From Mytilus edulis (Eukaryota): a DNA stretch of 64,000 bases. Of this stretch, positions 3,401 through 58,263 are shown piece after piece. The stretch lies in assembly GCF_963676685.1 (NCBI RefSeq), contig NC_092354.1:17980001-18044000 (forward strand). The letters are read 5' to 3'. The number at the start of each line of letters is the position of its first letter. The first letter of the stretch is position 1. The position numbers were made by a program, and so were the translations under genes. The notes under the pieces are model-generated. The model made no database searches. It was not told the DNA's origin and worked only from the letters and a program-made list of their open reading frames with translations.

Positions 3401-6331
3401 ACGGGTGCCACATGTGAAGCAGGATTTGTTTACCATTCCGGAACACCTGAGATCACCCCTAGTTTTTGTGGGGTTCTTGTTGTTTTTTCTTTAGCTTTCT
3501 ATGTTGTGTCATGTGTACTATTGTTTGTCTGTTTGTCTTTTCATTTTTTAGCCATGGCGTTGTCAGTTTGTTTTAGATTTATGAGTTTGACTGCCCCTTT
3601 GGTATCTATCGTAAAGTGGCTTTACTAATAAAAACTAGATATGTAATAAGAAAGACGTCTAAACTGTATGAATTTGTATTGATGACTAAAGTACAAGATA
3701 ACGTCATAAGTAAACGACGTTGGATATACATTAATGCCGCGTTACGTGAACGTTCTCTTCTGTGCGTGATTACCAACAGTATCTTTCGTCCCTCTTTTGT
3801 AAGTTTGGCATCTTAGATTTGTAGTAGATGTGGTTCTATGTTAAGGAATGCTATAATGAGGATCTAAGGTTCTGATATATATTATCGTTAGTAGAAAAAC
3901 TCTTTCTGAAAAAGAACATAACATATATAAATAACTAGCTATTCAAGATAATATAAGTAAATACTTAAACGGAATATCACAGAGTGTTATTGTTGTGTAC
4001 CTTATAATGACGACTGATGTGTAGTTTTTTTTTTCTTGTTCTCATATCGCGGATCATAGGAAACGCAAATAATGGTTGGAACTAAGACAGTAATTTTAAC
4101 TCGTACTTTGAAATAAAATAATGTTGTTATTTGTAGATAGTACAACTTTACCACAGGAATTAGATACAAGTATTTAAAAAAAAAAAAAAGTATTTACGAT
4201 GAAAACACAGAAAAGAGCGTTCAAGGTACAAGCTTTTATCATCCTACTTGGAACTACCTTTTGAAATGCTTTTGCAAATTCAAAGTTCTTTTTCCTGTGC
4301 CTATTATATGTTGTTGCGTTGCATGCTTTCAGAAACAACGACTAATTCAGCTATCAGTTTTATCTGCACTAAAAAAAATGTATATTATAAAAATTGCAAA
4401 AGAGATCAAGAATGGTTAGTTCTGACAAATGAATCAACCGGAATGCAAGGCAAAATAATATAATACTGAAAACAAAACTTGTTATAAAGTTTTGATTTTT
4501 GTTTCATCTATTTAGTTGCACATGTACATGCACTGTGGGTAACCTAGATACCGTATAGCGGGTTATTTTCGCGGGGTGTAAATTTTCGCTTATTTTCGCG
4601 GATAGAACAAAATCACCAAAATAAATTCCGCCAATTTAAAAGTGTACATGCAAAGGTAATGTTAAAAATGTTGAATCCGCCAAAATAATAACCGCCAAAA
4701 TATTTCGTATACCTTATTCAATGAAAATCGCGAAATTTTGCACCCGCGAAAATAACCCGCTATACGGTAATATGTATTTTGTTATCATGTTTCGGTAAAA
4801 AATCCAGTTTTTGCATTTAGAAAGGCGATTCATATTTCCATATAAAAGTTATGATACGGTATCAATTTGATGACAAATCTGTAACTATGAAAAACGTCTG
4901 CATTTTAAGAATTGAAGTTAATGACAAGTTCAAGTGTGTCAACAGAATACTAGTTTCACCAAAACCAACACGAGAAAAATAATTTAAAACGTTATGGAAA
5001 TTATCAAATTCGAAGTCGGTAATACTTAAATATTTAAGTTGTTGGTTTTCTGGAAATAAAAACATAAGACATTTTAATGCAAAGAAAATCTGCCTTTGTC
5101 AATAAGAATTTGATTATTTCGTCTTGTTGTATCGATGTGTTCCTCCTTTTTGTGTTACCGAGAAGTTCAATACTGCTGTTATACTTTTTCTTCTAAAACC
5201 ATCAGAGTATGTTGGAATATCATTTGGTACTGATGTTGAGTATATTTAGTGTTTGATGTTGTCATTTCAGGATTGTTGTCAGGAAAGGTAATTGTAATCT
5301 ACATATTATCAGTTACATTGGTGGTTCTCGGAATATGTTTATGCTTTATATTCTACAAACACAAGATGAAAGCAACTATCACCCAATCACAAAACCCGTC
5401 GCCAATTCCAAACAGTCATCATATCGAAATGGAAGAACGTTTGTATGCCATTATCAATGACGCAGACATGCTTGACGAACAACAGCTGAAGGAAATTCAA
5501 ATTTCGACTGATTACCTCGATGTAATAAGCGGATCAAACAGCTCCGGAAGTGGTGAAGGCCCAAATGATGACGCAGCTATCACCCGATCACAATATCCTT
5601 CGCCAACTCCAACCAGTCATCATATCGAAATGGAAGAACGTTTGTATGCCATTATCAATGACGCAGACATGCTTGACACACAACAGCTGAAGGAAATTCA
5701 AATGTCGGCTGATTACCTCGATGTAATAAGCGGATCAACCAGCTCCAGAAGTGGTGAAGGCCCAAATGCAGATACCAATGAAATCATTTTCAAGTCGTTG
5801 TCAGCTAATCAGATGAAAATCCTGGTCAACAAAGTAATATGTAGTTCTTTAAATAATAGTGAAAGTACATTATCGTCTAGAGATGATAGCCGGGAAACAA
5901 CACAAGATTACTTAAATCCATATCAGTCCGTGATTAAAACGTCAACACCAAGCATTCGAGAATATCTTACATTAGCAACAGTACACAACATAACAGAGAG
6001 TACTGAGTTCGATAAACAATCAGGTTCACTTAGAAATAATGAGAATATACTTCGGGATCCGAAGGACCTAGAGGAGATCGGTTTGCGGCAACCATATAAA
6101 TTATACGAAAATTTCTCAATTGGCGTTGGATATGCAGTCTATCAGAATTGTTTATCAATTAAAAGGGAACGTGAATCGAAATCGTGCGAAAATTTGAATA
6201 TCAACTGGTTGAAAATAAAAACATTTTCCGCAAAAGACGTTAACAATAAAACATCAAGTGAAGATAATAGCTTTGACTATTATAATATATTCAAAACTAA
6301 ATCAGAAAGCGACTTATTTCGTAAGCAATAA
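450..6331 (+). CDS. EGF-like (MEGF10/SCARF-type) single-pass receptor, 5'-incomplete, spliced
   Basis: Phase-consistent exons: 450-546 (GYTSATGKNCRPCPNNMYGARCGYECSCSVFQ), 2000-2067 (CDKVEGCVDVSSQNGTLVITTS), 4137-4169 (DSTTLPQELDT) and 5271-6331. CP-x3-YG-x2-C-x3-CxC...C-x4-GC is the MEGF/SREC-type EGF pattern. The acceptor at 449 is weak and upstream exons were not found. Confidence 0.7.
2458..3800 (+). mobile_element. 5'-truncated, degraded Penelope-like retroelement (RT and 3' tail) in an intron of gene 1
   Basis: Broken ORFs carry KTFDFSTLYTSIPH, GTNCAPLLADLFL, FRYIDDV and KLYDKRDDFSF..SNIP..GVYISQLIRY; several stops and frameshifts; the 3' tail recurs at about 34872-35122. Confidence 0.85.
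4551..4767. mobile_element. MITE with TA target duplication (Tc1/mariner-type)
   Basis: TIR CCGTATAGCGGGTTATTTTCGCGGG at both ends, flanked by TA. Confidence 0.9.
5271..6331 (+). CDS. Terminal exon of gene 1: TM helix and Tyr-motif cytoplasmic tail
   Basis: Acceptor catttcag at 5270; hydrophobic VIVIYILSVTLVVLGICLCFIFY followed by KHKMK; tail motifs YAII x2, YLDV x2, YQSV, YLTL; AATAAA overlaps the stop codon. Confidence 0.85.
5372..5773 (+). repeat. In-frame 201-bp (67-aa) tandem duplication
   Basis: 5372-5572 and 5573-5773 both encode ..SHHIEMEERLYAIINDADMLD.QQLKEIQ.S.DYLDVISGS..S.SGEGPN. Confidence 0.95.
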
Positions 6332-27300: not shown

Positions 27301-30300
27301 GCAGTTACGAAAAACACTTGATACAAATAAAGCACAGTTGAGACGAAAATACAGAATGAAAGATTTTGTCATCAATAATGACCAGTGGAAATTATTATAT
27401 GATCATGTTAAGGGTAAAAAGTTAACTCAGTAGGATATATTAATAATGTTAAATAGTTTTGTGTCTGCTACATTGTATCTGTAGTTATACTCAAGGACTG
27501 TTATAGGTAAAAAAAAGATATATTAATAATCGTTTTACCTGTGATACAATGAGTTTTGTAAATGGAAATTGACGCTTGTTTTAATAATGTTTACATTCCT
27601 TTCATTCTTGGGGATTCAACTGAAGTTCAAATGGATACGGATGAAAGTGAATAACGATATTTTTTTACTACTTTTGACAAAACTGAACCAAACTGGCTGC
27701 TACAAGAGAATTATTATTTCAATATTTAATTTATAATTTATCAAAAATTGAACATAAACAAATTATACTTTAATTAATTTTCTATATATCGTAGCTAATA
27801 TCAATTTAATTATTTCTTACAAGGTTTATAATTATATGTCTTTATTTCATTTCAAGGAAAAACACTTACTTCAGAGGATTTTGACTTAGGACTCATGATA
27901 TATCTATTACCAACAATTAAGTCTATCGACCTCGGGGATTTATATCCAGTCAAAACTAATACGAGAATCAATGCAACGCTTACCAGAATTAAATATATAA
28001 GAAATAATGTTATTCAAAGCATAGTCGAATCACATTCAGATGAAAATTATCATCAATTTCTGGATGATCTTGAAGAGGTAAGAACATTGTTGTTTGTGTT
28101 CGTGTAGTTGGTTGATTACAAACCTTTGATCAGTCTTCATGTCGTTTCATTCAATACCAGTTGGTAAAGAAATAGGGTTTGGTATTTTGATCATAAAAAA
28201 TACACTGAGAACAGACAAAAGTTTTGGTATTAAAACAACATTTACAGATAAGCAGTATTTTTTATGCTGCACATCTACATTTTGAAATCTCACCCCTTGT
28301 ATATTGTGATTAAACAAATAAGTTCAATAAACAATAACTGAACATAAATTGATATAAAAAAGACGTTAATTTCTAGTTATACCTGAGTTTAATTTTTTTT
28401 TTTAATCTAAACATAATGTGTTTGGCCTTTTTAATGTATGCACGAAAGTTTGAAGAGAAACATAAGTTGTCTTGCAACTAGTCACTTAAAAGAGCCCCGA
28501 TGACTGATTGTTCGAAGATGTTTAATAACTATAGGTGTATTCCACCATTGATTTTTCCCTATTAGTCTTTGTTAAATTGACACTTTTAAAAAAATTGTAC
28601 AGTATTTACCTTTATTTCAACCAAAGAAATACTTTGCATGTTTAAAGTTTAATCCTTTCCAGTGATACAGTGAAAATTTCACACTACATTTCATTGTATA
28701 TAAGAAAGTAACCTACGCCGGAAGTAAACAACCCAATTTTTACACTGTTATTTACTGGTTACCTGCTTTGGTAACTATGTAACCTTTACGTTCCAAAATA
28801 TTTTTTAAGACCATCAAATAAAAAAAGAATGATGCTTTGAGACATCCAACATACATATTTACGACTCAGAAAAATTTAAGTGCATTGAAATGCAGGGTTA
28901 ATTTTCTACAACTGTCAAATTCAAGGGAATATTTTTTTAGGCCTACTTTCGTTACATGATTTGGTGGTATTACACCTATACTGCTCGCATGTCAAAGCTA
29001 AGTAAGGAGTTTGAATCACGTACGCGGCAGCTTTTGTTGAATCAAATCCAGGTTTTCTGACTTCCTCAACCAATAAATATGACAACTGCTATATAGCCAA
29101 AACCAATCAAGCAATCAATAAATCAATTAATATTTATAGACAGTTGGTTTGTCAAGAAGCTGATTTCTTTTGTTTTCTTGAATTACGATCATGACAATGT
29201 TGCATTTATAATTAAACAGTTACTTCACAATAAGTTTCAGATTTATAACTTCTGCTAGTAAAATTCTACTGAATAAATTATACACATAATTTATCACATA
29301 TCCTATTTAATAATTTATACGTTCATGTTCTGCTAATAGATTTTTTTTAATAGGCTGTACTTAATTTGTTGCCACCACATACATATTTCAAGGAGAATGA
29401 CAAAGACAAGAAACAACTTATTGGTAAGATGCATTAGTTAATCAATTTGAAGGAAATCTTTGTTTTGTTTTTTTATGTTTGTTGAATAAACACTTGATTA
29501 TCACAAAATTGTTTTTTTTTTATTAATTCTCTAATTGCCAAGGGTACATAATTAAGAACCGTGTTTTAGAAATGCTCTAACGGCCTGGGAAGCAGAACAT
29601 GCAAGGGGCTAAAAAGGTTAACATTTTTCTATAGATTATGCGTTTACTAAATAAAACATGTTAATGCGAATAACAGATGTAATATTTCTGCCCCTTATCC
29701 AAAATATCCTCATTTTCATGGTATTCAAAATATCTCGCCCTTCAGTCTGCTTACATTAAGTAGTATTATCAGTGTGTTAATTTTTACTTAGTTCAATTCT
29801 TGAATATATATGACGTGAGTACCACTGAATAAAACAATCACAAGTGACCATGTATGTTTCCAATTTGCTTAAACCTAATTATTTGTATCCAACAGATGGG
29901 TTTGTGTTGCACCAATCTGAAGTGTGCTTTGTATATGTTGTATAGTGTTGTTGATTCCAGTTTGTTGTATTTTGATTATTCTTTAACAAAGCATTCTTAT
30001 AACTTTTTATCTTGATTTTTTTCGTTTATTTATTTCAGATAGACTCCTTTTATTGAATCCCATAAATGTTAACAATGATAAGCTGTTTGCCTTTATCGCT
30101 ATGTCTGAAATATATCCTTCTATAATACTACAGAAACTCATTTCTGAATTTTTGACATTAAATGAATTAAAAATAGAACAAGTACTAGAAGAAGAAAAAC
30201 ATCAGCTTTATCACAAACGACATAAAACAGAAAAATGCTGTACGTGCATAGAAATATCAGCAACATATATGAAAGTGCTTACCGAAGAACAATGGGAAGC

Positions 30301-33300
30301 ATTGTATGAATTGAGGGGTTGTACCAATAGTAATGACTGTAAATGTATGCTCAAAATATGTAGTAAATCAGTTGTTCCGAGGAAAGATTTCAAACTTGAT
30401 TCATGTGATTTGTCATTGGTCGTGTCACTGATTCTTTATATACCAAAAATATTGAAATATTTTCTTTGCATTTACGGTTTTCGCAACTTCTTGGTGAATT
30501 ATCAACATACAATTTACCATTATATGGAGAACAAGAGATGTTGTAAATGTAAAGAACAGCTAACTGGAAAATTAATACTAAAAGAAAAGGAATGGAATAA
30601 GATTTTTATTAGAGATAACAATAAATCTTGCCAGAACAGTAATAAGAACTGTTGTTGCCGTTATAAACCAATAGATGGAATCGAATGCTCAAACGTGAAA
30701 GCGACGTTGTTGTCAAAAATTGTATATGCGGCAGGCCCTATAAGTGTTCTTACAAAAATTGGACAAGAAACGTTCTTATACTTTATAAATTGGACAATTG
30801 ATGATGTAAAATTATCTGGGGCGTTAAAAGAACTATTAAGAATGATAAAACCAGATGAAACATTTTCTCGTGACATTTTACATCGGATAACATCCAGTAA
30901 CTTCACTCAACTAGATAAAACTTTGACACAACATATTAATCCGCATAGATGGATTTCAAGACACTTGCAACATCAACAGGTATGTCTTTTACTGTAATTA
31001 ATCTCCTAAAGCATTAAGAATGGAAACGGGAATGATGTCAAAGAAACCTCAATCCGATCTAATAGAATAAAACATCCCATGGCCACTAATGGGTCTTCAT
31101 CACAGCGGGAAAATCCCGAAAACAGAGGCGGGCTTTAGCTGGCATCTTTTACAAAAGTGTGATAAGAGAATGACTTCCATGTTAAAGGCCTCAAAGAGAC
31201 CTATAGTTGTTAATTTCTGTGTCATTTTGGTCTCTTGTGGAGAGTTGTCTCATTTGCAATCATAACACATCTTCTTTTTTATATAAACATAGGACATATG
31301 GTCAATACATACAAATGTCTTCTTTGAGATAACCACTGATTAGAATGAAATCATGCAGGGCATGGATATTCCTTATGCGAAGTTTAACCAATGTTATTAC
31401 TTTCACCATCCAAGATGGCAGCCAGCTGGAGACTTCGTTTTACAAAGGACTCTATAGACAATACTAACACATTTTTTCTTTTAGAGAACCCCTAAACGGA
31501 ATGAAATCAACATGGTATGAATGTTCCTGATTGGATGCTGACCAAGAGTTACTGTGTTGAAGCCCATCAACAATCGTAGGGGGCTTATAGCCGAGGACTT
31601 CGTTTAACATAGGACAAAATGAGCAATACATACAGATGTCTTCTTTGAGAAACCACAGACTGGAATGAAACCAAATATGGCATGAATGTTCCTAATGAGG
31701 TGTTGACCAATTGTTGTTACTTTGTAGCTGATTGATCATCAAAGATTGCCGTAAGCGGGGATTTACTTTAACACTGGACCATATAGAAAATACATACAAA
31801 TTTCTTCTTTTAGAGATAAGCTTAATGGAATGAAATCAAACATGGCATACATATCCCATGAGGTGCTGATCAAGTGTTGTAACTTTGTCGGCCATCCATC
31901 GTCCAACATGGCCGCCAGTTTAGACTTACATGTAGTTTACCATATGACCCTATGAGAAATGCATACAAAAATGCATACAACTGTTTTCTTTTAGGTAACC
32001 ACTGAATTGAATGAAACCAAACACGGCTTGAATATTCCTAATGAGGTGCTGGTCATGTGTTGTTTCTTTGTAGCCAATTAAACATCAAAGACGGCTGCCA
32101 GAGGAAACTTAAGTAATGAAAAACCCCTATGTGAAATACTTAAAAAAGTTTTCTTTTGAAGAACCACTGGATGGAATTAAACCAAACATGACATAAATGT
32201 TCCTTATCAGGTGCTCATCCGATCCACTAACAAAGATGGTTGTCAATGGGGAACTTTATTAAACAAAAGATACTTAGGGAAATGTATTACTTTTGAGGTG
32301 CTTACCATGTGTTGTTACTTTGTAGCTGATTTGTCATTACCAATATGAAGTAATTTTCTACAATTTCAATGAATTTGTGAGTGATTTCTGTACTTACAAA
32401 AATCTTCTGCGTTTGATTAATGTACGATGCTAAAATAAATATTAAATCTAATTTGGCCTCGATGATTATAAGTATATCAGTTATGATTTTAATCTCTTTT
32501 TTAACATGAATTCAAAAAAAGTAGAATCAGGTGAGCGACACATGCTCTTGAGAGCCAGTAGTTGAATTTAACCTAAATGGACAGTTTTCATTTTTTTTAC
32601 CCTGGTATCTATAATGACTTAATTTTTACAGTATTCGCACGGCATTTAGTTCATAGATTTTGAAAACATGTCTTTTTAATTTTTGTTCTCAGGCCACAAC
32701 TGGAAAATCTCTTCAAATTCTTCTACTCGATAAAGGTATGTAATGTTCATTAATAAATGATAATAGAAATACAAATTCAAAAAAAAAAGTTGTGATGTTT
32801 CACTACTGTCGCGGTTTAGCAGGGGAATGTTTTGAAATATCAGATTGTGTATGTGCATATTCTGAAATAGAAGACGGTTTTTCAGTATTTTTTTAGGGAA
32901 AGATTGCATGAAATGCAATCAAAACAATATGTTACTGCCTTGATATCTATTCCTTTCAAGGCTTATCACTACCTTTTTTACACACAAAATATAGTGCATT
33001 GATCGTAACAGTCTATACTTCCGATCCATGAACATTTCCAGAAATTAATCAATGAAATACATTATATATATGCTCAGATATTCAAGTCACAAAACGATGT
33101 TACGCCTGTCAAGAAAATTGCATGACTTTTGCAAGGTGCAGGAATATAATATCTGTTTTTAAAAAATAAACGGTGTCATTGCTAAAGTCATTTTTAAAGT
33201 ATGAAGATACATCTGTATCTCCCATTCTCCAGTATTGTAATTAAATCAACCACAACACATGCTTTATTGACAATTCAATATTCAATTTTACTTCCCACTG

Positions 33301-44282: not shown

Positions 44283-47200
44283 ATATTTTGTATATTATAC
44301 TTTTTCTATGCTTTTGCCGTTGAATACCTTTCAATTATTTTAAGCACGAGAGTTCGATTCTCTAATATGTTTACTATAATAGTAGAGTATTTTTATATTT
44401 TACATGGCAATCAACCTAGCTTTCTCAGTTTCTGCAATATAGAAATTCAGGGGCGGATCCAGACATTTTTAAAAGTGTGTTCCAACCATATGCCATTCAA
44501 ACGCATTGATCCTAAAACCTAAAACAAAAAAGCGGAGTTCCAATCCCAGGACCTAAGTATATAAATAGTACTATTAAAAGGGTGATAACTACGGAAGCGT
44601 ATTTATAGCGCCACACATTTTTTTCTTCCTATGTTTGCGTTGTAACATTGGAAATATCAAAACTTCTTCAGCCCACTGTAATCGCAAAACTAAGTCAGCA
44701 TGTGACCCAACGCACCACTAACTAGCATGGTGAAATTCATATGTACATTATGTACAGAGACAAAAATAAAACGAAAAAGTCACAAAAAATAATTTTATTT
44801 ATGAAATGTACATTATTTTATACCCCTAAGGCATATACAAACAATACAATACAATATACATAATGGAAAAAAATAACATATTAAACATCATATATAAAGT
44901 GGTAAAACAGTAATATACGAAACACGAAGACTATAATTATATACATACTCTAATTTTTTAGGAAATGTCATTAATACTTGTTGACTGTCGTGAAAGTTTG
45001 TATATTATACTTTTTCTATGTTTTTCTCTGCATAGCAAGGTGTTTAAGTATAATAAGCATTAGTTATCACAATGAATTAGCTGTTGAAGCTTTTCATGTT
45101 ATTTTGTAATAGTGTGTTGGAAAACTATCCGAAATTTATGATAAACCATAAGGTCAATAAAATGATCAAATATGAGAAATAAGAAGATGTGGTGTTGATT
45201 GCCAATGATATAACTCTCTTTAAGAGACCACATATGTCACCGTGCACATACATTTTTAAACATGTGATTGAAAGCACCAACCCTCCCTTACCGGACGTAA
45301 CCTTTTACAAATAAAGTTCTCATTCCTTAATATAAAAAGCTATGTAGAATGTACATATTTCCTACTGAAAGTAAACATTAAAGGAATCTTTGCCTCATGC
45401 AGATCTGAGCTCCGAGTAAAGGTGATAAATAAATAAGATCAAACTATAAGTTACGGGCGTTTTTCAATAAAAGCATAACTTTCAGACCTAAAAAAAGTGG
45501 AAAATCAACTTGTCTAAAATTTAATTTCAAGAGTTATCTGAATACCTCTATTATAGACCTGTTTGTAAACAAAAATTGCAATCTTAAATATTCTCTAAAA
45601 TGATATAATTTTCATAATTTGTGTACAGTTTCGTAGGGGACTTGTGTACCCTATGAAACTTCTTCTTAACACATATATTTTTTGCAATTTTAAATGTTTC
45701 CTATAGACATTCCAGTTGTTTACTTTAAAAACTAGGAAAATCTCATTTTTTTCTGAATTGGAAAACCATTTTTATCGATAAAGAGTAGACAGTACTTCAC
45801 ATATGAAGGTACAACTCATGTTACGTAGTGGACATTTTGATGCGTTTCGTAGTGGACAAAACCGTTTCGTAGTGGACAAAAAGTTTCGTAGTTGACATCA
45901 ACCCTATTATATGTTAAGAAAAACATAATAAAAATTACATGAAACTAACCCTTGTTATTTGGTTTGGACGAATATAATCGAAAAAAGATTTAAAAAAGAC
46001 TGCATGGTAGTGGTAGTGTCCACTACGAAACGTTCTTCTCCCATACTTGTTTCGTAAGGGACAGTTTCGTAGGGGGCGTATTCGCATGTTTTATTTTTTT
46101 TCCCACAATCCCTATATTCACAGTGTGGGAACGGAACTGTACGGTTTTCTAATATTTTGGTCATTCGGGAGACTGTCAAGCGGTGCTCCGACATTCGAAA
46201 AATAACAAGTTGCTTGATGGAAACTTTGACGAACTTTTATGTTCCTATATAACGTTTCTTCTTCAAGTTTTGATAGCTAAAACATTCTTTATGTAAATAT
46301 GGACCAATAAAATAATAAGAAAGATATATGCATCGAAACGTTTTTCTTAGAATGGTGGAGCTCCGTGTAAAACGATCAAAATTGTCACACAACAGCGATC
46401 AAAAATGTCAAATAAACATCGAAAAATCAATGTTTGCTACCTGGATTTTCACATGTACCTTTTCTGATATATAGTCTTACCTGTCTGAAAGTTTCAAAGC
46501 CATTGTCCCAGTAGAAGTCCAAATATATTCATTTTCTCCATGTCGGATATTTTTATTGACTGTACAATCGCTCGCAAGTTGACTGTAATATCACTCGGAG
46601 ACTTCCTGTAAATCACTTGGAGCTTTCCTGTAGAATTGCTTGGCCAAATTTATTAAATACATTGCATATGCATTGCATTGGTTGTTTATTGCTGTCCTAT
46701 TTGTTCATCTATGGTATTTGAAGTGAAAATAAGCACAAAACAAGTCATTTTGACAATTAAGATTCTATCAAGGAACCCTTTTAAGGTGACTATATCAGAG
46801 ACAAAAACAAAACGTGTACACTACACATAAAAAAGAAGATGTGGAATGATTGCCAAAGAGACAAATTTCCACAAGAGACCAAAATGACACAGAAATTACC
46901 AACTATAGGTCACCGTACGGTCGTCAACAATGAATAAAGCCCATACCGCATAGTCATCTTTAAAATGTCCCGAAATAACAATGGAAAACGACTTCGGAAA
47001 ACTAAGGGCTTATTTATGTACAAAAAATGAACGAAAAACAAATATGTAACACATAAACAAACAACCACTGAATAAGTATACAAGACAAAAAGAAAAGGAC
47101 AGTACAAAATATGTTAAGAATCTAATCTTAAATAAAAATGATAATAATCCTCGTACAAAGTAAATATTTATATATACCGAAAAGATTCTCTGGAAAGTTA

Positions 47201-47325
47201 ATTGACATATTTTGAATTTTACTTAATATATTATTCACCAGCAATTTTAGAAAAATAATAAATACATATTTGAACAATACAACAAAGAATTTTTCAGCAC
47301 AGGATCGGGATATTGAAACTTGATA

Positions 47326-47659
47326 TGTACCATAGTTTGTTTGAAAAAGTGTGAGGGAATCGACACATACACCACAGTTCCATATCGACCCTCTGATTGG
47401 TTTACCAGAAGATTGAAAATGGTCATGTGGTGTATGTTAGATTCCTCACACTTTTAGCAAGAAACTACATTGTACCACATTTTCTTTCCTGTGATATCAG
47501 TTGAGAACTTTGACACATGTCATTTACCAAATAAAAAAGTGATTGGCTATATGTGCAGATACACCATAGGATGAACTAAATTTCAAAGCAAAGCTTTATC
47601 GTGAAATTTAGCCTCTCTTATGGTGTATCTACACATACCCAACACTTTTTAATTTGGTA
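47326..47659. repeat. Two adjacent palindromic MITE-like hairpins (47326-47476, 47525-47659)
   Basis: aaaagtgtgagggaatc..acatacaccaca mirrored by tgtggtgtatgt..gattcctcacactttt; taccaaataaaaaagtg..gatacaccata mirrored by tatggtgtatc..cactttttaatttggta. Confidence 0.75.
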
Positions 47660-48223
47660 TAACAAGGAATTCGAATGTGGAATTGTGGTAGCTAACCACT
47701 GACCCAAGAAAAGACACGTATATGTCAATAAACATGATATTAAAATAGAAGATGTGGTATAATTACAAATGAGATGTCTGTGTATTACAAGCTATACATG
47801 TAGCTACTGGTAGAAAAGGCTCCAGTAAAATTAAATGTTATCAAGGATAGGACAGGACTTGTTATCTGAAAGACAGAGAAAACACAAAATTCTTCAACAT
47901 TTTTTTTTTTATATCAATGTCACGATTCAGGAACTTTTTAATATTCCCAACTATAGCATCCGACAAACAAACGAAACAGTTGTTTTTATTTAGGGAAAAC
48001 AACATTTTATCAATTTGAAACCACATTTATATTTTCAGCATAAAAATAAGGAGTTGTGATATGATTGTCAAAGTTAAAAAATAAATGGATTTAAGCAATT
48101 ATAATCGGCTATAAAAGGTCCCGAAAAGAAAAATAAGAAACAATACCTTTCGAATTAAACTGACGGCCTAATTCATAATAAAACAATTTACGAAAAACAT
48201 ATATGACAGACACGAACCAACGA

Positions 48224-48823
48224 TATTCTGCCTCAGTGCATACTAGTATAACCATAAGCCACAGTAATGTATATCATTTATTTCGAAAACCATGAAATAA
48301 CAAGTTCTACATATGTGTGCTGTGATGTTGGTAAAAAGCTACAAAAAACAAAAACAAAACCTTAGCTAACTCATCATACTCATGACTACAAAAATCATAA
48401 AACTAACAGTTCAAATCTATGTATCAAAATGAATTTTCAATCAAATCATTCAAAAATTATAGCACCAAATGGCTTTCCATACTTTTGTAAAAACAGTGAC
48501 AAAATTAACAATCATCATATTTCACTTTTGGCTGATATACACATATACAAAATTTATCTTGATGTGGAAACATATTAACTTTCATCATACAATCATTAAA
48601 AACTATGAATTATAAACTTACATTGTGAGTTGGTGTAGTTTACGATACTTTTAAATGCCTGTGACCACGTTCATGCTTTCAATTTAGGAAACAAAAAAGT
48701 ACGGGGGACAGTAACGAAGTTCAAAGTACAAAAATCTAGCAATAAAAAATAGTCCGGGAAAACTTATGAAAAATCGATAGAATTTCTGTTAAACAATAAA
48801 AAATCAACACTGGTAACAGTACA
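48224..48823 (-). repeat. 3' LTR
   Basis: Direct repeat of 55526-56125 with about four differences by eye. Confidence 0.97.
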
Positions 48824-49288
48824 CTCCCCGTCTATTATCATTCCCATGATAATATTTTACAACAAATTTATGCAAATATACCAAATGTAAAAATAAGTCA
48901 CAATTTTGACTATTACGAAAAATCAATGCTATCGAAGAACATTCCTTCAGCATAAAAAACACACTAAAAATACAAACAACAGTTCACTTAAACCTTCCCT
49001 TGACACCATTTGCGAGTATGGTCTTGAGGAAACGATGATAGTCCGTCGGACGGGGACGATAAATGGCTGGCCCGTGTTAAGAGAGAGCCATATCTCTTGC
49101 ACGTTAAAGACACCCTTGTAGATTTCGAAAAAGAGTAGGCTAATGCCGCTACAAGGCAGCACTCGCACCCGCAAAGTGGAAAGGGATTCATATAAGTTGT
49201 AAAACTTGTTTCCCAATCCACTATAAATAAATATGTTTAAACTAAACTAAACCTTTTATAATTTGTTCAATATTGTCAATATTCACAA

Positions 49289-52200
49289 TCAGTCTACCAA
49301 TAAAACCATCTCACTAATCGGTCTAGTATATGTAACAGCTTTTCCTTCCTTGTAAATGCGGAGGCGAGCCTTGCGTACTTTTCCATCATCGCTTTTGAAA
49401 ACTTCCTCCACAATGCCTAGTGGCCACTTTCCTCGGTAAATAGATTTGTCTCTCATAAGAATTACATCACCAACTTTGATATCGTCTTTGTCAACGTGCC
49501 ATTTACGTCTCTGTTGCAAACATTGTAAATAATCTGACCTCCAATGCTTCCAGAATATATCTGATAGAACTTGCACATGTTTCCATTGTGCACGATACAT
49601 ATCCTTGAGATTGTATGTGTCCGTTATCACAGGTAAGTATTCTTGTTTTCCAGTTAAGAGCATTGATGGACTTAAAATCAAAGGCATTTCCGGATCTGAT
49701 GATATCTGTGCAATGGGTCTTGCGTTAATAATAGCGGTCACTTCAGCTAAGAATGTTGTTAAACTTTCATGAGTCAAACTTTTACTACTAGAAGTTAAGA
49801 TAACAGCGTCTAATATTCTTCGTGTGACACCTATCATCCTTTCCCACACTCCTCCCATGTGGGAAGAGTGGGGAGGGTTAAATTTCCATACTGAACCAGA
49901 TTCACATAGAAAGTTTTTAACTGTCAAATCTTCAACATTTATAGCTTCAATATTTGAATCATCTGTGGCACCTATGAAATTTGTCCCACGGTCAGATCGA
50001 TACACTTTGGCTTGTCCGCGTAATGACTGGAACCTACGAAGTGAATTTATAAAACAGGAACTGCTTAATGATTCTATCACTTCTATATGAACTGCTCTCG
50101 TAGTCATACATGTAAATAAAATAGCCCACCTTTTACTATTTGCTGAACCTCCATGTGTCTTACGAGTTAATACTTGCCAAGGTCCGAAGGTATCCAAACC
50201 TACAAATGTGAACGGAGGCCCTGGTGTTAGTCTATCAGAAGGCAAGTCCGCCATTTTTTGTTCCTGGAACTTTCCTCGAAGTTTCCTGCATATTACACAC
50301 TTTTGTATAAATGAAGAAATTAATCGTTTAGCTCCAATTAGCCAGTATCCTGCACTCCTTAACGCACCTTCAGTTAAATGTCTACCCTGATGTTTCACTG
50401 AATTGTGATAGCGGTCTATAAGAAGCTTACTAATGTAACTATTTTTCGGAATGATAATTGGGTTAATTTCTCCTGTCGGAAGCCAAGACTTTGCCTTTTC
50501 CAAACGTCCTCCTACACGAATCAAACCTTGTGAATCCAAAAATGGCGAAAGAGAGATTAAAGATGATTGTTTTGAAATGTTTGTGCCTCTAGCCAAACAT
50601 TCTATCTCTTGCGAATATACTTCCTTCTGACATTCCTTCAAGATAAATAATTCCGCTTTTTGGTAACTATCAACTGACATGACATTTTGACAAAAATGCC
50701 AACCTTGGCACGACTTATCCTTTAAACTGAATGACTGAGCCACATGTTGCAAAAATGATATAGCTTTCACAAGCCGTCTCCAACTAGAGAATTTTTTAAA
50801 ACGCCCCACTATTGGCGCAAGCGCATCTATTGACGTTTTCGATGCACTTATCTCTTTTCTAATCTCTTTATCATTATCTGGACTAACTAACGGATATAAT
50901 ATTTTGACATCACATTGAGCTTCTTCGTCAGAGTTCTTCATCCACTTCGGCCCAAGAAGCCATGGATTGTTTTCCTTATCAACAGATATTGAGTAACGTG
51001 TACCGCAATCTGATGGGTTTAAATGTGTTGGGACAAACTGCCACTGATTTGACGACGATACACTCAGAATGCGTTCAATTCTGTTTGACACGTAGGTGTG
51101 AAAACGTCGGGTCTGATTAGTGATATATCCTAACACAATTTTGCTATCAGAATAATACTTGATAGAGTCCAACGGAACATCTAAATTTTCAGATATTATT
51201 TTTCCAATTTCGGTTGCCAAGACAGCCCCACATAACTCTAATCTTGGTATTGTGTTTCCGCTAAGAGGTGCTAGTTTCGATTTTCCCATAATAAATCCTA
51301 CGGTACTGGTCCCATACGTGTCGATAGCTCTTAAATATGCCGAAGCCGCAACTGCCTTCTCTGAAACGTCTGAAAATACATGTACTTCTAAGTTGTCCAT
51401 AACACTGATTGACATAGGTATATACATACGCGGTATACTAAGTTCTCGAAGTGACAAAACAGGGATCCTCCATTCATTCCATTTCTCTTGAAAACTTTGT
51501 GATAAACATTCATCCCAATCAGTACCCGGTGGGGATGCATCTCAAAACAAAATCTTTCCGCTAATTGTGAGTGGTGACAAGAATCCAATCGGATCAAAAA
51601 TACTATTCAATGACGAAAGAATACCTCTACGGGTGCAGGGTTTATCATCTTGTAATGGGGTAAATATAAAGCTATCGGTGTTTAAGTCCCAAGCGAGGCC
51701 AAGGCTGTGTTGTACCGGAAAATAGTCTTCACACAAGTTTAAATTCTTGAGATCCTTTCCAATATCATCGGTAGGGAAAGCCTTCATTACGTCGCTACTA
51801 TTTGATGTAATCTTGTGTAACCTAATGTTACCTTCTGTTTTTAGCGCCATCTGTGTTCTTGTTATAAGATCAATTACTTGTTCACTTTCAGGCAAGGAAA
51901 TGAGCCCATCGTCTACGTAAAAATCCCTGTTAACGAAAGTCTTAACATCTGAGCCGAACGTTTCATTAGAGTTTTCAACTGTCTTACGTAATCCGTACGT
52001 TGCCACTGCAGGAGAAGCGCTATTGCCAAAAACATTGACACACATCCGATGTTCTATAAGCGGATTATCTGGGTTATTGTCCTTGTACCAAAAGAACCTC
52101 AAAAAGTTTCTATCTTCTTCTCTCACGTAGAATTGATAAAACATTTGTTCTATATCAGCAGTGGCCGCAAACTGGTCACTGCGAAAACGCAACAAAATAC

Positions 52201-55200
52201 CAAGTAGGTTGTTAGTGAGATCTGGTCCTGACATCATAACGCTATTGAGAGATACTCCTTCGAAAGATGCTGAGGAATCAAATATGCCTCTTATCTGGTT
52301 AGGCTTGTTCTGATGGTAAACGCCAAAAAGGGGGAGATACCAACACTCCTCATCTGTGATTATGGGAGCTACCTCTGCTGCTCCGCTAACTAATACTTTT
52401 TGCATAAATTCTACAAAATGAGTCTTTTTTGTAAAATTTTGTTGGAAAGATTTATCGAGTATTTGAGCCCTTTTCCATGCTTGACTCCTATTGTTCGGCA
52501 ATCGTTGTCTATTTGGTCTAAAAGGGAGGGGTGCAGTCCAGTGCCCATTTGAATCTTTCTTAAATTCAGAATCCATGAGATTAAGGAACAAGCGGTCTTG
52601 GACTGATGTGCCAATCTTGTCGTCGTCTTTGGTTTTAATAAACAATGGGTCATTGTTACATCTTTGTGAATGAACATTATCTCTGATATGAGCCAATTCA
52701 GTGTTTTCCTTTACATACAAAGTGTTAATACAAGGTTCAAATATAGTTCCTCTACCATTGTTCATTACATTAGTCTTATTTACATTGACAAAATTTGGTT
52801 TGTTTACTTTGCCTAAGCAAACATCGCCTATAATTACCCAACCGAAAAAGAGCTCCTGGGCAAATGGCGTGCCCTTCGGTCCTGTCAACTGTCTAAACAC
52901 GTGGTGCGCTTCTGGGACATCTCTTCCAATCAAAAGTTGAATGTCTATATTTGGATTCAAATCTAACATTTGATGAGCTATCTCCCGTAAATGGGGATAG
53001 GATTTAGCAATATCCGGAGTCGGAATTTCTGATTTTTCGTCTGGGATTGCACTGCACTCTATTACTGAATGTATTTCAAGTTCTCCATTACCAGACAATG
53101 ACTCAACTATCAGACTTTCTGCACATCTACCATTCATGATAGTGCGTCCAGCACAAGACGACATAGTATACTGAATGGCCGATGTATTTATACCTAATTG
53201 ATCAAACAGCTCAGTCTTCGCAAGAGTTCTGTTACTTTGGTCGTCCAGTATAGCGTACACATTAACGGCTTTATCTGGGAAGTTCTTCGGGTACACACGG
53301 ACCTGAACGGTTTTTCCACATGATTTACCACTAAATCCACATAAAAACGTGCACTTGGATGACACTATTTGATCATTAGCATTTTGCGTTGTATCAGATG
53401 ATTTCTCTCCGCCGTCAGGACAACTAGATTTTGCAGTTACATGCATAGCGGTTATATGATAATTACTTCCACAATGATCGCATTTTACAGTTACAGTGCA
53501 ATTTCGTGACATATGAGTTGTCGAATGGCAGCATTTGAAACAAATATTATTGTCCTTCAGATACTTTCTGCGTTCTTCATAAGTCATCGCTTTAAAGGCT
53601 CGACAAGTATTCAAATGATGATTGGCTTTATGAATAGGACAACGTACTGTCTCTTTCTCTTCCTTCTGTTTAATATTAACATCCGTTTTTCGGTTAAACA
53701 CTGACGTTGCACCATGGTTAACTTTTCGTGTTTCATTTTTCCTAGAATACGACGTTTCAGTATTACTATAAATAAACGCGGGATCATTTTTGACAGCACT
53801 AACCTCTCTGATAAATTGCACCAAGTACGAAAAAGGTGGAAATGGTACGTTGTTCCTCAGTTTGTATTGCGATGCACGTGTTGTCCACTTCTTTTGTATA
53901 TTATATGGTAACTTGTCCACAATTGGTAAAACACCAGAAGAAGAGTCGAAATATGACAATAAATTTGAAAATGTCTCATTCTCTTTCGAAGATTCTATTT
54001 GTGTGAGAATATCTAATAGCTCATAAAGTCGACTATGATCCTTGTTTGTTAACTTTGGAAACTTCTGTAGTTTTGTTTTAATTGCAGCTTCTACCATCTC
54101 AGGTCTACCATAGCGTTCGTCAAGACGCTCCCATATACATGTATACGACGAAGACCAGCATTTGGATTGTTCACATTTGACGCACGAATATTTTGCGAAA
54201 ACTTTGAAGATTCACGGCCGAGCCATTTAACTAATAAGTCCATTTCTTCGGAAGCCGTAACTGAGAGTTCTTCAGTAATACTTTTAAAGGTAGCTTTCCA
54301 TGAAGCATAAGTTTCGGGACAGTCATCGAAATTCTGAAATCTAGAAAGTAATAAATCTTTCTTCAACAAAAACTTTGTCAAGTCAGACACTACAGACTGA
54401 TCATGATTTGGTGGCAGTGGTGGTTGAGTTAATTCAAAATCAGCTGCATAAGGATTTAATGTTTGTTTTTGCCGAATTTCTGGTTTAATATCTTCAACTA
54501 TCCATCGATCCAAATCGTCGACTTGAAATTTTGGCAAATTCCTTGGCGTAGGAATTATGTTTAACTGGTTCCGAGGTGCCGGAGTATGTGAACTAAATTT
54601 GTCTTGATTGTTCGGAATATCTTGCGGAACATTATTATTCTTGTCTTGAGATTTGAGTTGTTCCACTTCATTAAATTGTTCATTTACATACTTTTCTGTT
54701 AGTGTCATTTTCACTTTTTGTAAAGACTCTTTGTCTTCTTGTAACAACAAGGATCTTCTATCGCTCTCGGCTTCTTCTAAAACTTTGACCTCGACCTCTG
54801 CGACAGCGGCTTCTGTCTGTTGTTTAAGCAGTGCTAAATCTGCATCAACTTCAGCTTTTTCATGGTCCTTTAAAGCTTTAGACTGTGTTTCTAATTCACT
54901 TAATCTTGCTTTTTGCTTAATTAATTTTGTTTGTTGTTCCGCATATTGTAACTTTGTTCGTTGAACTTCAGCATTTACACGCTTCCTAGCCATAGCTGAA
55001 CTCGAAATTGAGCCGCTTTTACCACTATTGTTTGAACGGACAGACTGTACAGGAACTACTGACATAGTTTCAGCTGCGGTTAATTTCAATGTCTTAATTT
55101 GTTGTAATGTATTGTCAATGATTTCAGTGCACTTTTTAAACTCAGTCTTAAAGGTGGGTAATGCTTCATTACTGTCTTCATTATTCTTGCGTGTCAAAAA

Positions 55201-55455
55201 CTCAATATATTGATTTGAGTTTTCACAGTATTTTTCACGAGACTTCAAAATGTTTTTCTCTAGTTTGCGTAGCGGTTTCAGCTCCTTCGAGCACTCTGAG
55301 AATTCTTCGAGTAAATTTTCTATAGTTTCCCACGAACCGTCAATTTGCTTAAGGTATTTTATCTTATGTGAATGATAAAGTTCTTTACCTTTCTCTGTCA
55401 TTTTATGTTCATGTGTTACTGTTGTTTCAGGCGGAAGTGGTTGTGATTGAGCCAT
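49289..55455 (-). pseudogene. BEL/Pao gag-pol polyprotein with one frameshift and one in-frame stop
   Basis: Three zinc knuckles (CPIH..HHLNTC, CFKC..HMSRNC, CDHC..HITAMH), protease ILDDQS, RT FYVDD, RNase H HVFSD and TIPRLEL, integrase H-H-C-C and LDTFG/SDRGTNF/WERMI. Frameshift at about 54134-54145; TGA at 51542-51544 lies between two same-frame ORFs. Confidence 0.93.
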
Positions 55456-55525
55456 TTCATAAAATTGTTTGTAGGAACTACTGCATGTTATTCTGTATCG
55501 AACTGTGTCTTTGCAATCTTTTTAC

Positions 55526-56125
55526 TATTCTGCCTCAGTGCATACTAGTATAACCATAAGCCACAGTAATGTATATCATTTATTTCGAAAACCATGAAAT
55601 AACAAGTTCTACATATGTGTGCTGTGATGTTGGTAAAAAGCTACAAAAAACAAAAACAAAACCTTAGCTAACTCATCATACTCATGACTACAAAAATCAT
55701 AAAACTAACAGTTCAAATCTATGTATCAAAATGAATTTTCAATCAAATCATTCAAAAATTATAGCACCAAATGGCTTTCCATACTTTTGTAAAAACAGTG
55801 ACAAAATTAACAATCATCATATTTCACTTTTGGCTGATATACACATATACAAAATTTATCTTGATGTGGAAACATATTAACTTTCATCATACAATCATTA
55901 AAAACTATGAATTATAAACTCAATTGTGAGTTGGTGTAGTTTACGATACTTTTAAATGCCTGTGACCACGTTCATGCTTTCAATTTAGGAAACAAAAAAG
56001 TAAGGGGGACAGTAACGAAGTTCAAAGTACAAAAATCTAGCAATAAAAAATAGTCCGGGAAAACTTATGAAAAATCGATAGAATTTCTGTTAAACAATAA
56101 AAAAATCAACACTGGTAACAGTACA
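55526..56125 (-). repeat. 5' LTR
   Basis: Minus strand TGTACTG...GGCAGAATA. Confidence 0.97.
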
Positions 56126-58263
56126 AACGACAACCACTGAACTACGAGCTCTTGACTTAAAACAGGTACATAAAGAATTTGGCAAGGGTAAAAATGTTTG
56201 TGTGCGCTCATTTCTCCCCAAAACTATCACAGCACAAGACCAAACTATAAAAATCAGATGAATAATCGGATCATCATACTATCATTGACGATATAAGACC
56301 AGGTGCGGATCCCGCCTTTCTACAAAGGGGGATCCAAACCACGGAACACCATAAAAATCGAGAAAAAAAATTAGGCTTCAACCACCAAAAACTCCCGCTC
56401 CCCGCATACCAGATCCGCTAATGCAGGCTGCAGTCATTCAAATAAAACGTTCAAAAATCATTAACACTTTTGAGTGTGTAATTTAGGTTAAAACAAAAAT
56501 CGATAACAATACCAAAAATCGTAACAGAAAAAGGAGAGAAAAATCATACCATACATATATTGTATTGGATTGCAGTAGTTTTAATAAATATTTAGATGAC
56601 AAAAGTAGGCCTATCATGGAAAACATAAACTGATCATGAATGTGGCAGAAGAAGTTTAGCATTATCTACTTAAGAGTTATAATTAGTCATATGCCACTAG
56701 AAACTATTACAGCAAAATGCATTGACTAGCTTGCTTGCTAGCTGGACCGTGAAGTCATAAGAAGGTTAAGTAGGTTACCCTCCTTTCGGAGTAGTCTAGT
56801 TGCCCAAACGATGAAAAGAAAAGCTCCGAGTGATTGTACAGGAAGGCTCCGAGTGATATTACAGTCAACTTGCGAGCGATTGTACAGTCAATAAAAATAT
56901 CCGACATGGAGAAAATGAATATATTTGGATTTCTACTGGGACAATGGCTTTGAAACTTTCAGACAGGTAAGACTTTATATCAGAAAAGGTACATGTGAAA
57001 ATCCAGGTAGCAAACATTTTTCAATGTTTATTTGACATTTTTGATCGCTGTTGTGTGACCACTTTGATTGTTTTACACGGAGCTCCACTATTCTAAGGAA
57101 AACGTTTCGATGCATATATCTTTCTTATTATTTTATCATTGGTTCATATTTACATAAAGAATGTTTTAGCTATCAAAACTTGAAGCAGAAACGTTATATA
57201 GGAACATAGGAGTTCGTCAAAGTTTCCATCAAGCAACTTGTTATTTTTCGAATGTCGGAGCACCGCTTGACAGTCTCCCGAATGACCAAATTATGAGAAA
57301 ACCGTATAGTTCCGTTCCCACACTGTGATATTGCAATAGTATAAAGATTGACTGTATTCATCAAAGCATGTATTAAGCTGTACACTGATATTTTTTTCAT
57401 AATTTTAAAACCAGATACTGAAGGAGATTTGACCCGTTTCGTAGTGGACATTTACAAAAATACGGTATCACTCTGGTGCATTTAATGTGCTCAATTTTTC
57501 TTACCAACAATTTAATTGCCGTTATAAAATCATCACTTCTTTTGTAAGACCCTAATGATTATATCTCTTGCAAACAAAAATTACACTGATTTTATAAAAC
57601 TGTTTATTAGCAAATTTTAATGACTTCGTTTCGTAGTGGACATTTTGTTAGAGACACACCTTCTGAAATTAAAAATCCCATGTTAACCGCTGTTTATTAG
57701 AATATGTTGGCTCTAAACATACTTTTGAATTATTAAAGAACTTATATTTGGTAAAAATAATATTTATTTCTACACTTTTTTACGATATTTTTTAGTATGA
57801 ATGTTGAACAGGCGGGGTAGGGACATGCTATTTTGGTTGTTTTGGACCATTCAGGAACCAATATCTTATTAATCCCTCTAAAAAAATAAACTGTTTCTTT
57901 GCTTTAAAATGTTAAATCTAATTCAATGTACTGACTGCACAAAAAAATACTTGCAAAGATCAAACGCATGTTTTTTAAAGTGGCTAGGACAAGAAAGTAC
58001 GTTTTTATTGAAAAAAGCCCTTATAATAAGGTTTGAATAATCGAAAATTGCTTTTAATAAGGCAGCAACCAATTTATTTTTGTATTTCAGAAAAATCTGA
58101 TCAATGCTTGGGGTCAAAATTTGCAAAAATTGAAAACCATTGTCTCATTTTATTTCTACCATAGGGTTCATTCATTTAGTATGTGCCTTATGTGTCTGTT
58201 TTCAAAGAAATAATATGCAAAAACCCAACGGAGGCCCCATTCCAATAACTCTCCTGTGATGAA

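Follow-up and report, generated by a model that had tools for sequence, protein, structure and literature searches.

The window analysed here, a 64,000-nucleotide stretch of Mytilus edulis DNA (assembly GCF_963676685.1, contig NC_092354.1, positions 17,980,001 to 18,044,000 of the forward strand), holds a transposable element at 46119..57327, which was compared with its relatives in the 1.37-Gb genome and beyond. [quoted passage not shown] It is bounded by long terminal inverted repeats (TIRs) and carries a retrotransposon with its own long terminal repeats (LTRs). The features are listed below, the coding element being the transposase-bearing relative described further on.

45452..46113, no strand: left part of the host repeat, 88-95% match to 11 of 11 host-repeat copies
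46114..46118, no strand: left TSD, ATATT, 5 bp; a single ATATT at the empty site in 10 of 11 host-repeat copies
46119..46630, + strand: left TIR, 512 bp, counterpart of the coding element's 5' (promoter-side) end
46119..46198, + strand: terminal 80 bp, the likely transposase recognition site, 77/80 and 76/80 identical to the two ends of the coding element
46560..46625, + strand: three 22-23-bp subterminal repeats CTGTA..ATC.CTCG, putative protein-binding sites
46631..48218, no strand: left part of the non-coding core, 85-97% identity among family copies
48224..56125, - strand: nested BEL/Pao LTR retrotransposon, TSD AACGA, LTRs at 48224-48823 and 55526-56125
54091-55521, 51542-54211 and 49289-51541, - strand: BEL/Pao reading frames
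56131..56815, no strand: right part of the non-coding core, aligned with other family copies
56816..57327, - strand: right TIR, 512 bp, repeating the 5' end of the coding element; its subrepeats lie at about 56822-56887
57328..57332, no strand: right TSD, ATATT, 5 bp
57333..58025, no strand: right part of the host repeat

Much of this structure had been described in a first-pass annotation made from the sequence alone, and the description was borne out. The near-identical inverted repeats reported there as about 508 bp long and more than 90% alike are arms of 512 bp, identical at 489 of 508 aligned bases (96%) with 8 gap positions. Both termini carry CACAGTG and both are flanked by a direct ATATT, and the 22-23-bp subrepeats noted at the inner TIR ends were found three to an arm, 441-505 bp inside each terminus. 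Removal of the BEL/Pao element leaves 3,302 bp, in agreement with the earlier figure of about 3.3 kb of non-coding DNA. Family copies lacking this insert measure 3.2-3.4 kb, and no open reading frame (ORF) above 110 aa was present in the two copies listed. The BEL/Pao element is a later passenger in this copy, the other family copies being continuous across its insertion point. No remnant of a transposase or zinc-finger gene was detected in the core by tblastx against the coding element, and the only stretch common to both, of about 120 bp, lies in non-coding DNA there. About 135 bp of the core (window 47525-47659) form an imperfect palindrome that is kept in most family copies.

The insertion lies inside a host repeat of about 1.36 kb, which it splits in two. 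The empty site, which the first-pass annotation had proposed as a check, was observed as CCCT-ATATT-GCAAT with one ATATT in 10 of the 11 host-repeat copies examined, the eleventh reading ATAT-GGCAAT; because these sites hold a single ATATT, the 5-bp duplication is proved. A 3-bp TSD with TCAC ends was ruled out, as the base preceding CAC varies and the empty site has one ATATT. The two arms are not independent insertions either, since the arms of the copies come in pairs with the same core between them.

The first 16 bases of the element occur exactly 202 times in the genome, and the reversed pattern, used as a control, does not occur; about 100 elements are therefore present. Among 34 two-ended copies, 27 had an exact 5-bp TSD and four a 5-bp TSD with one mismatch, while single copies had 4 bp, 6 bp or none. 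Three of three further pairs also had an exact 5-bp TSD, bringing the total to 30/37; these counts exclude ends without a partner (L042, L043, L048, L064, L066, L067, L069, L070, L198 and L200). When flanks were paired across copies as a control, only 11 of 1,122 combinations matched. The GC content of the TSDs was 21%, against 33% for the window. The CACTA/Chapaev (CMC) group, with a TSD range of 2-4 bp (PMC4482050), was rejected: one of the 37 pairs fits 4 bp, and 5 bp is proved by the empty site. A search for P-type excision footprints, as two end stubs no more than 30 bp apart, gave no matches, an absence that says little.

The first-pass annotation had taken this CAC-ended element with its 5-bp TSDs to be non-autonomous and had expected a cognate transposase elsewhere in the genome; the element is indeed a single non-autonomous one of the cut-and-paste type, and such a transposase was found. 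The first coding copy, C5 (locus L056), is 6,875 bp long with the TSD TAGAT and contains broken long frames, and a genome search with these frames gave 123 matches. Three more copies combine the ends of the element with a transposase gene: C9 (11,808 bp, TSD TTGTT), C1 (15,269 bp, TSD TTTAT) and C7 (20,362 bp including insertions, with the 6-bp TSD TAGTAT). These four coding copies bearing the ends of the non-coding family are called family A. Their terminal 80 bp are identical to those of the non-coding element at 73-77 of 80 positions; for the right TIR of the window, the identity to the two ends of the coding element is 75/80 and 73/80. The frame of C7, of about 1,500 aa, is split only by a 385-bp insertion, and the next-closest transposase family in the genome shares about 49% identity with family A. 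The coding-type ends that were listed belong to the family A element or to its deletion series, with C12 matching the terminal 116 bp only.

Family A has a TIR of its own of just 61-80 bp. The 500-bp TIR of the non-coding element aligns with the 5' end of family A at 91% over bases 1-111 and 72% over bases 123-502 (copy L034), and the 3' end of family A matches it over 80 bp only. Because of this asymmetry, the long TIR appears to be a derived state in which two 5' ends surround filler DNA. Subterminal motifs of the CTGTA type were also detected in family A, 426 and 459 bp from its 3' end, and in family B, a related family, where they lie 410-422 bp from each end.

Related families contain open frames of 1,336-1,511 aa. 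The motifs of the protein follow one another as D1 (DGKK), a long helical stretch, the YqaJ domain, D2 (DGQ), another long insert, DxxH and E (ExFF), so that the lambda-exonuclease (YqaJ) domain is inserted between the first two catalytic aspartates. Among 13 transposase ORFs, Pfam PF09588 (YqaJ) scored above the cut-off in eight and PF21787 in two, and PF12940 in none; an N-terminal C2H2 finger was found in 10 of 46 long proteins. Conservation was scored in 99 database proteins of at least 900 aa, where the DDE residues are kept almost throughout (D1 68/68, D2 95/98, DxxH 91/91, E 84/85), and the exonuclease residues likewise (D 97/99, E 98/99, K 98/99). The insert is present in all 67 proteins spanning D1 and D2, a count to be read with the fact that the search profile included the insert and so favoured matches bearing it. 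All eight motif sites are kept in 52 of 56 full-coverage proteins.

An AlphaFold2 model of the relative L121 (1,167 aa, predicted local distance difference test score (pLDDT) of 78, 16-row alignment) placed the catalytic positions on the expected strands and helix. Foldseek matched this model to lambda-type exonucleases and to the Drosophila P transposase. When it was compared with 973 chains by VIA-align, the P transposase scored Z 26.6 (root-mean-square deviation (rmsd) 2.8, 306 aligned residues), while model residues 309-501 matched LHK-Exo at Z 15.8 and the exonucleases at 15-16. Scores were lower for HzTransib (12.1, rmsd 5.1), RAG1 (10.8) and Hermes (9.1). A model of the C-terminal half (pLDDT 74), compared with 48,161 chains, again gave the P transposase first (18.7), above RAG1 (6.2), HzTransib (5.7) and BbRAGL (5.4). 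The transposase is thus predicted from these models to have a P-element fold with a nested lambda-type exonuclease. A sequence search of the PDB matched exonucleases only, and the ESM Atlas gave a single cluster at 0.85 (YqaJ 64%), which is taken as a lead only.

The same enzyme was also found at 17 loci of other families. Eight of them had CAC ends and an exact 5-bp TSD (AACTT, AATGT, ATTAA, AACAT, ATTTT, ATTAT, ACCTC and TTCAA) and one had a 6-bp TSD, with TIR lengths ranging from about 50 to 483 bp. Additionally, each of the 16 coding loci examined has a convergent C2H2 zinc-finger gene, downstream of the transposase and on the opposite strand. Among the intact-looking copies, the most compact one found is L117:1166-8303 (G000:C6), which is 7,138 bp long and has 483-bp TIRs that are 99% alike, the TSD ACCTC, an open frame of 1,443 aa and the zinc-finger gene; the 13.5-kb C10 element is also apparently intact. 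Another coding element, G000:C5:94707880-94721801, has 418-bp CACTGTG TIRs and unlike flanks; it also carries inverted transposase 3' exons and is possibly a rearranged copy.

A profile search returned 971 clusters at E up to 1e-30. A species name was carried by three of the 30 cluster representatives looked up, and the named members come from Mytilus, Ruditapes, Batillaria, Owenia and Branchiostoma, that is, molluscs, an annelid and amphioxus. In a FastTree phylogeny of 46 proteins (19-50% identity), ten mussel sequences were scattered among other lineages, and the group is therefore old. At least nine loci were detected among 596 stretches of metagenome contigs; the convergent zinc-finger gene was present on two of five metagenome contigs from other sources, and both ends together were found on none of the five examined. 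Viral contigs gave 93 pattern matches and no relatives.

Regarding transcription, contigs of two runs, of which one is recorded as RNA and the other guessed to be RNA, covered the family B ORF at a depth of 3-12. In both runs the contigs were joined at a GC-AG intron, in agreement with the annotated exon border, and this spliced joint points to an RNA origin, though contigs alone could be DNA. The intron with these GC-AG ends is the final one in the transposase gene of family B (L113:7670-8682).

The likeness to the P superfamily (Drosophila P, 1360, Galileo and THAP9; PDB 6p5a/6pe2) lies in the predicted RNase H fold with a helical insertion domain, in the order D, D, DxxH, E (the D(2)H signature), and in a short TIR with subterminal repeats about 400 bp inside, comparable to the zebrafish THAP9 elements (PMC7776569). 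By contrast, the TSD is 5 bp, rarely 6, instead of the 7-8 bp of P elements; the protein has an inserted exonuclease; a separate convergent zinc-finger gene is present; and profile-profile comparison with P-like transposases, on shallow alignments, gave no significant match, while PF21787 passed its cut-off in 2 of 13 ORFs. The spacing also differs from that of an ordinary P-like protein encoded in this genome, with 555 against 108 aa between D1 and D2 and 386 against 38 aa between D2 and DxxH. The 7-8-bp TSD and the THAP domain are defining features of P (PMC3698922); the lineage is P-like in fold and signature but, lacking both, is not filed as a P member. The ends of elements carrying ordinary P-like genes, intended as a control of TSD length, were not found in any of ten stretches. 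Ordinary P-like (PF21787-9) genes at L179:295-1593, L177:8432-9517 and L183:2282-3337 adjoin second ORFs of 350-430 aa, which gave one weak C2H2 match and two weak PF12596 matches.

The exonuclease domain has its own parallels. Lambda exonuclease and LHK-Exo (PDB 1avq, 3sm4 and 3syy) share the fold at Z 15-16 over 170-190 residues, together with the D and ExK residues; the difference is that here it is a predicted domain of a transposase, set on a long helical stalk. KolobokE also joins a DDE transposase of the C/DxxH group to a PD-(D/E)XK lambda-exonuclease-like domain, but its nuclease lies downstream of the transposase and its targets are TTAA (PMC9587614). Membership of Kolobok was rejected, as neither a TTAA TSD nor RR..YY termini were found. 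Similarly, ISL2EU elements carry a YqaJ exonuclease, but as a separate ORF next to a Harbinger-type transposase and with the TSD AT (PMC4482050).

A possible mechanism can be outlined. About 500 bp from the 5' end of an older element related to the coding one would have been set at both ends of unrelated filler DNA. The transposase would bind the terminal 80 bp or so, together with the subrepeats about 430-500 bp inside, whose distances from the termini are similar at both ends in families A and B. The DDE centre would then cut the ends and join them to the target with a 5-bp stagger, without strong sequence choice beyond AT-richness. The BEL/Pao element entered this copy afterwards. Lambda exonuclease digests 5' strands. 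As a best guess, held with about even odds, the inserted exonuclease would trim the 5' strand, either where the ends are cut or at the break left in the donor; such digestion would be the counterpart of the 17-nt staggered cut of the P transposase, which requires GTP (PMC7776569). The convergent C2H2 zinc-finger protein might provide sequence-specific end binding in place of the THAP domain of P, a role judged a little short of even probability, or it might instead regulate the transposase gene.

Several observations weigh against this explanation. The TSD counts rest on 37 pairs of about 100 copies, and the TSD scan sought CAC..GTG by design, with an unbiased self-BLAST giving the same arms at most loci. 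Eight of the 17 other-family loci yielded no pair of TIR and TSD. None of the four family A copies is intact: C5 has in-frame stops and a deletion, C9 a late frameshift, C7 the 385-bp insertion and C1 many stops. Two raw RNA runs contained almost no reads on the family B ORF. With respect to the fold, the models were built from alignments of 16 and 11 rows on L121, which shares 29% identity with the cognate protein; THAP was absent from all 13 transposase ORFs by Pfam and from all 46 long proteins by pattern; and hhalign against the ordinary P-like transposases of the genome gave non-significant E values of 0.33-0.45, from shallow alignments. Finally, the TIR is just 70-72% identical to family A beyond the terminal 110 bp or so, and the direct parent of the non-coding family may thus be a lost sister of family A.

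This last point leads to a reading in which the non-coding family was mobilised not by family A itself, but by a sister transposase, since lost, that shared its lineage and mechanism. The divergence of the inner TIR speaks for it, as does end position 28, which differs between the non-coding and coding groups. Against it, the terminal 80 bp are 91-96% identical and the copy-to-copy divergence is similar in both groups, which fits cross-mobilisation; a lost sister as the source was considered rather unlikely.

No published description of a P-fold transposase combined with an inserted exonuclease was found in the literature search, for which Repbase, Dfam and subscription reviews were outside the scope. 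The lineage is apparently an undescribed one of P-fold transposons, in which the roles of the enzyme are inferred. It might instead be an already curated, divergent P-superfamily branch, filed in Repbase or Dfam under what may be a P, Transib or unclassified label. Oyster and amphioxus genomes are well curated, and the fold, the DxxH signature and the PF21787 matches in 2 of the 13 ORFs are P-like. However, besides the negative literature search, the sources label the related proteins as hypothetical, uncharacterized or YqaJ-domain only, and the profile-profile comparison with ordinary P-like transposases was not significant, as given above. Prior curation was also held to be on the unlikely side.

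Less probable is a mere passenger status of the exonuclease domain, with a structural or DNA-binding part but no nuclease role in transposition. Some copies lack motif residues (four of the 56 full-coverage proteins do not keep all eight). Nevertheless, the catalytic D, E and K are retained in 97-98 of 99 proteins of a family whose members share only 19-50% identity.

The first-pass annotation had assigned the element to a Transib/RAG-like family, and this assignment proved wrong. CAC termini, here as the exact recombination signal sequence (RSS) heptamer, and 5-bp TSDs are hallmarks of Transib and RAGL (PMC1131882, PMC7204232); RAGL elements are present in other mussels (PMC7204232) and have two convergent genes, and Hztransib has long TIRs (PMC1852546). 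However, where a search for copies enclosing RAG1-core/Transib or RAG2-like ORFs had been suggested, every element-borne transposase found between these ends is the P-fold one with its inserted exonuclease, and the entire 500-bp TIR maps onto the 5' end of the P-fold element. The doubts voiced in that annotation over the missing canonical nonamer and the AT-rich TSD were correct warnings: no nonamer was found at spacings of 11-13 and 22-24 bp after the heptamer (best match 4/9), and the low GC content of the TSDs contrasts with the GC preference stated for Transib (PMC1131882). Moreover, the ends depart from the protostome RAGL consensus CACTWMCAAAC (PMC7204232), the fold match is far weaker than to P (Z 12.1 and 10.8 for the whole model, 5.4-6.2 for the half), none of the 13 transposase ORFs matched PF12940, and the second gene encodes a C2H2 zinc-finger protein, not a kelch and PHD RAG2L. 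A Pfam search of the genome for RAG1 gave no candidates, a result that is uninformative as there was no working control. The element is not Transib or RAGL, from which it differs in its enzyme, in the lack of a nonamer, in the composition of its targets and in the second gene, and it is very improbable that it is a non-autonomous member of those groups whose ends the P-fold elements merely share.

The broadest reading, offered tentatively and with slightly more doubt than confidence, is that these elements form an unrecognised superfamily of animal DNA transposons, with a P-fold DDE transposase, a working internal lambda-type exonuclease, a zinc-finger partner replacing THAP, CAC ends and 5-bp TSDs. 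If so, the ends would be processed by exonucleolytic trimming, a route undescribed for cut-and-paste elements of eukaryotes, and the combination of RSS-heptamer ends and 5-bp TSDs would have arisen outside the Transib/RAG line. CAC ends with 5-bp TSDs serve as a signature of Transib/RAG-like transposons, from which V(D)J recombination descends; as this family bears that signature with a different enzyme, gene-less elements filed as Transib by their ends may be misassigned. The enzyme would be unusual in that a single chain holds two nuclease folds, the one set inside the other, an arrangement kept in hundreds of the element's lineages among animals. The apparently intact 7.1-kb L117 and 13.5-kb C10 copies make the role of a transposon-borne exonuclease directly testable, a matter that also concerns KolobokE and ISL2EU.

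Some minor features of the window were also recorded. Two open frames, of 363 aa (5240-6331) and 336 aa (29987-30997), gave no Pfam match. The host repeat (45452-46113 and 57333-58025) is unclassified, with 434 first-look candidates genome-wide, and contains GTTTCGTAGTGGACA subrepeats and a weak inverted repeat of 45-52 bp at its edges. In the BEL/Pao element, one stop separates the two downstream frames, and the LTR reads TG...TA on its own strand, not TG...CA. Its LTRs are identical at 597 of 599 positions, an identity that marks it as a young insertion.

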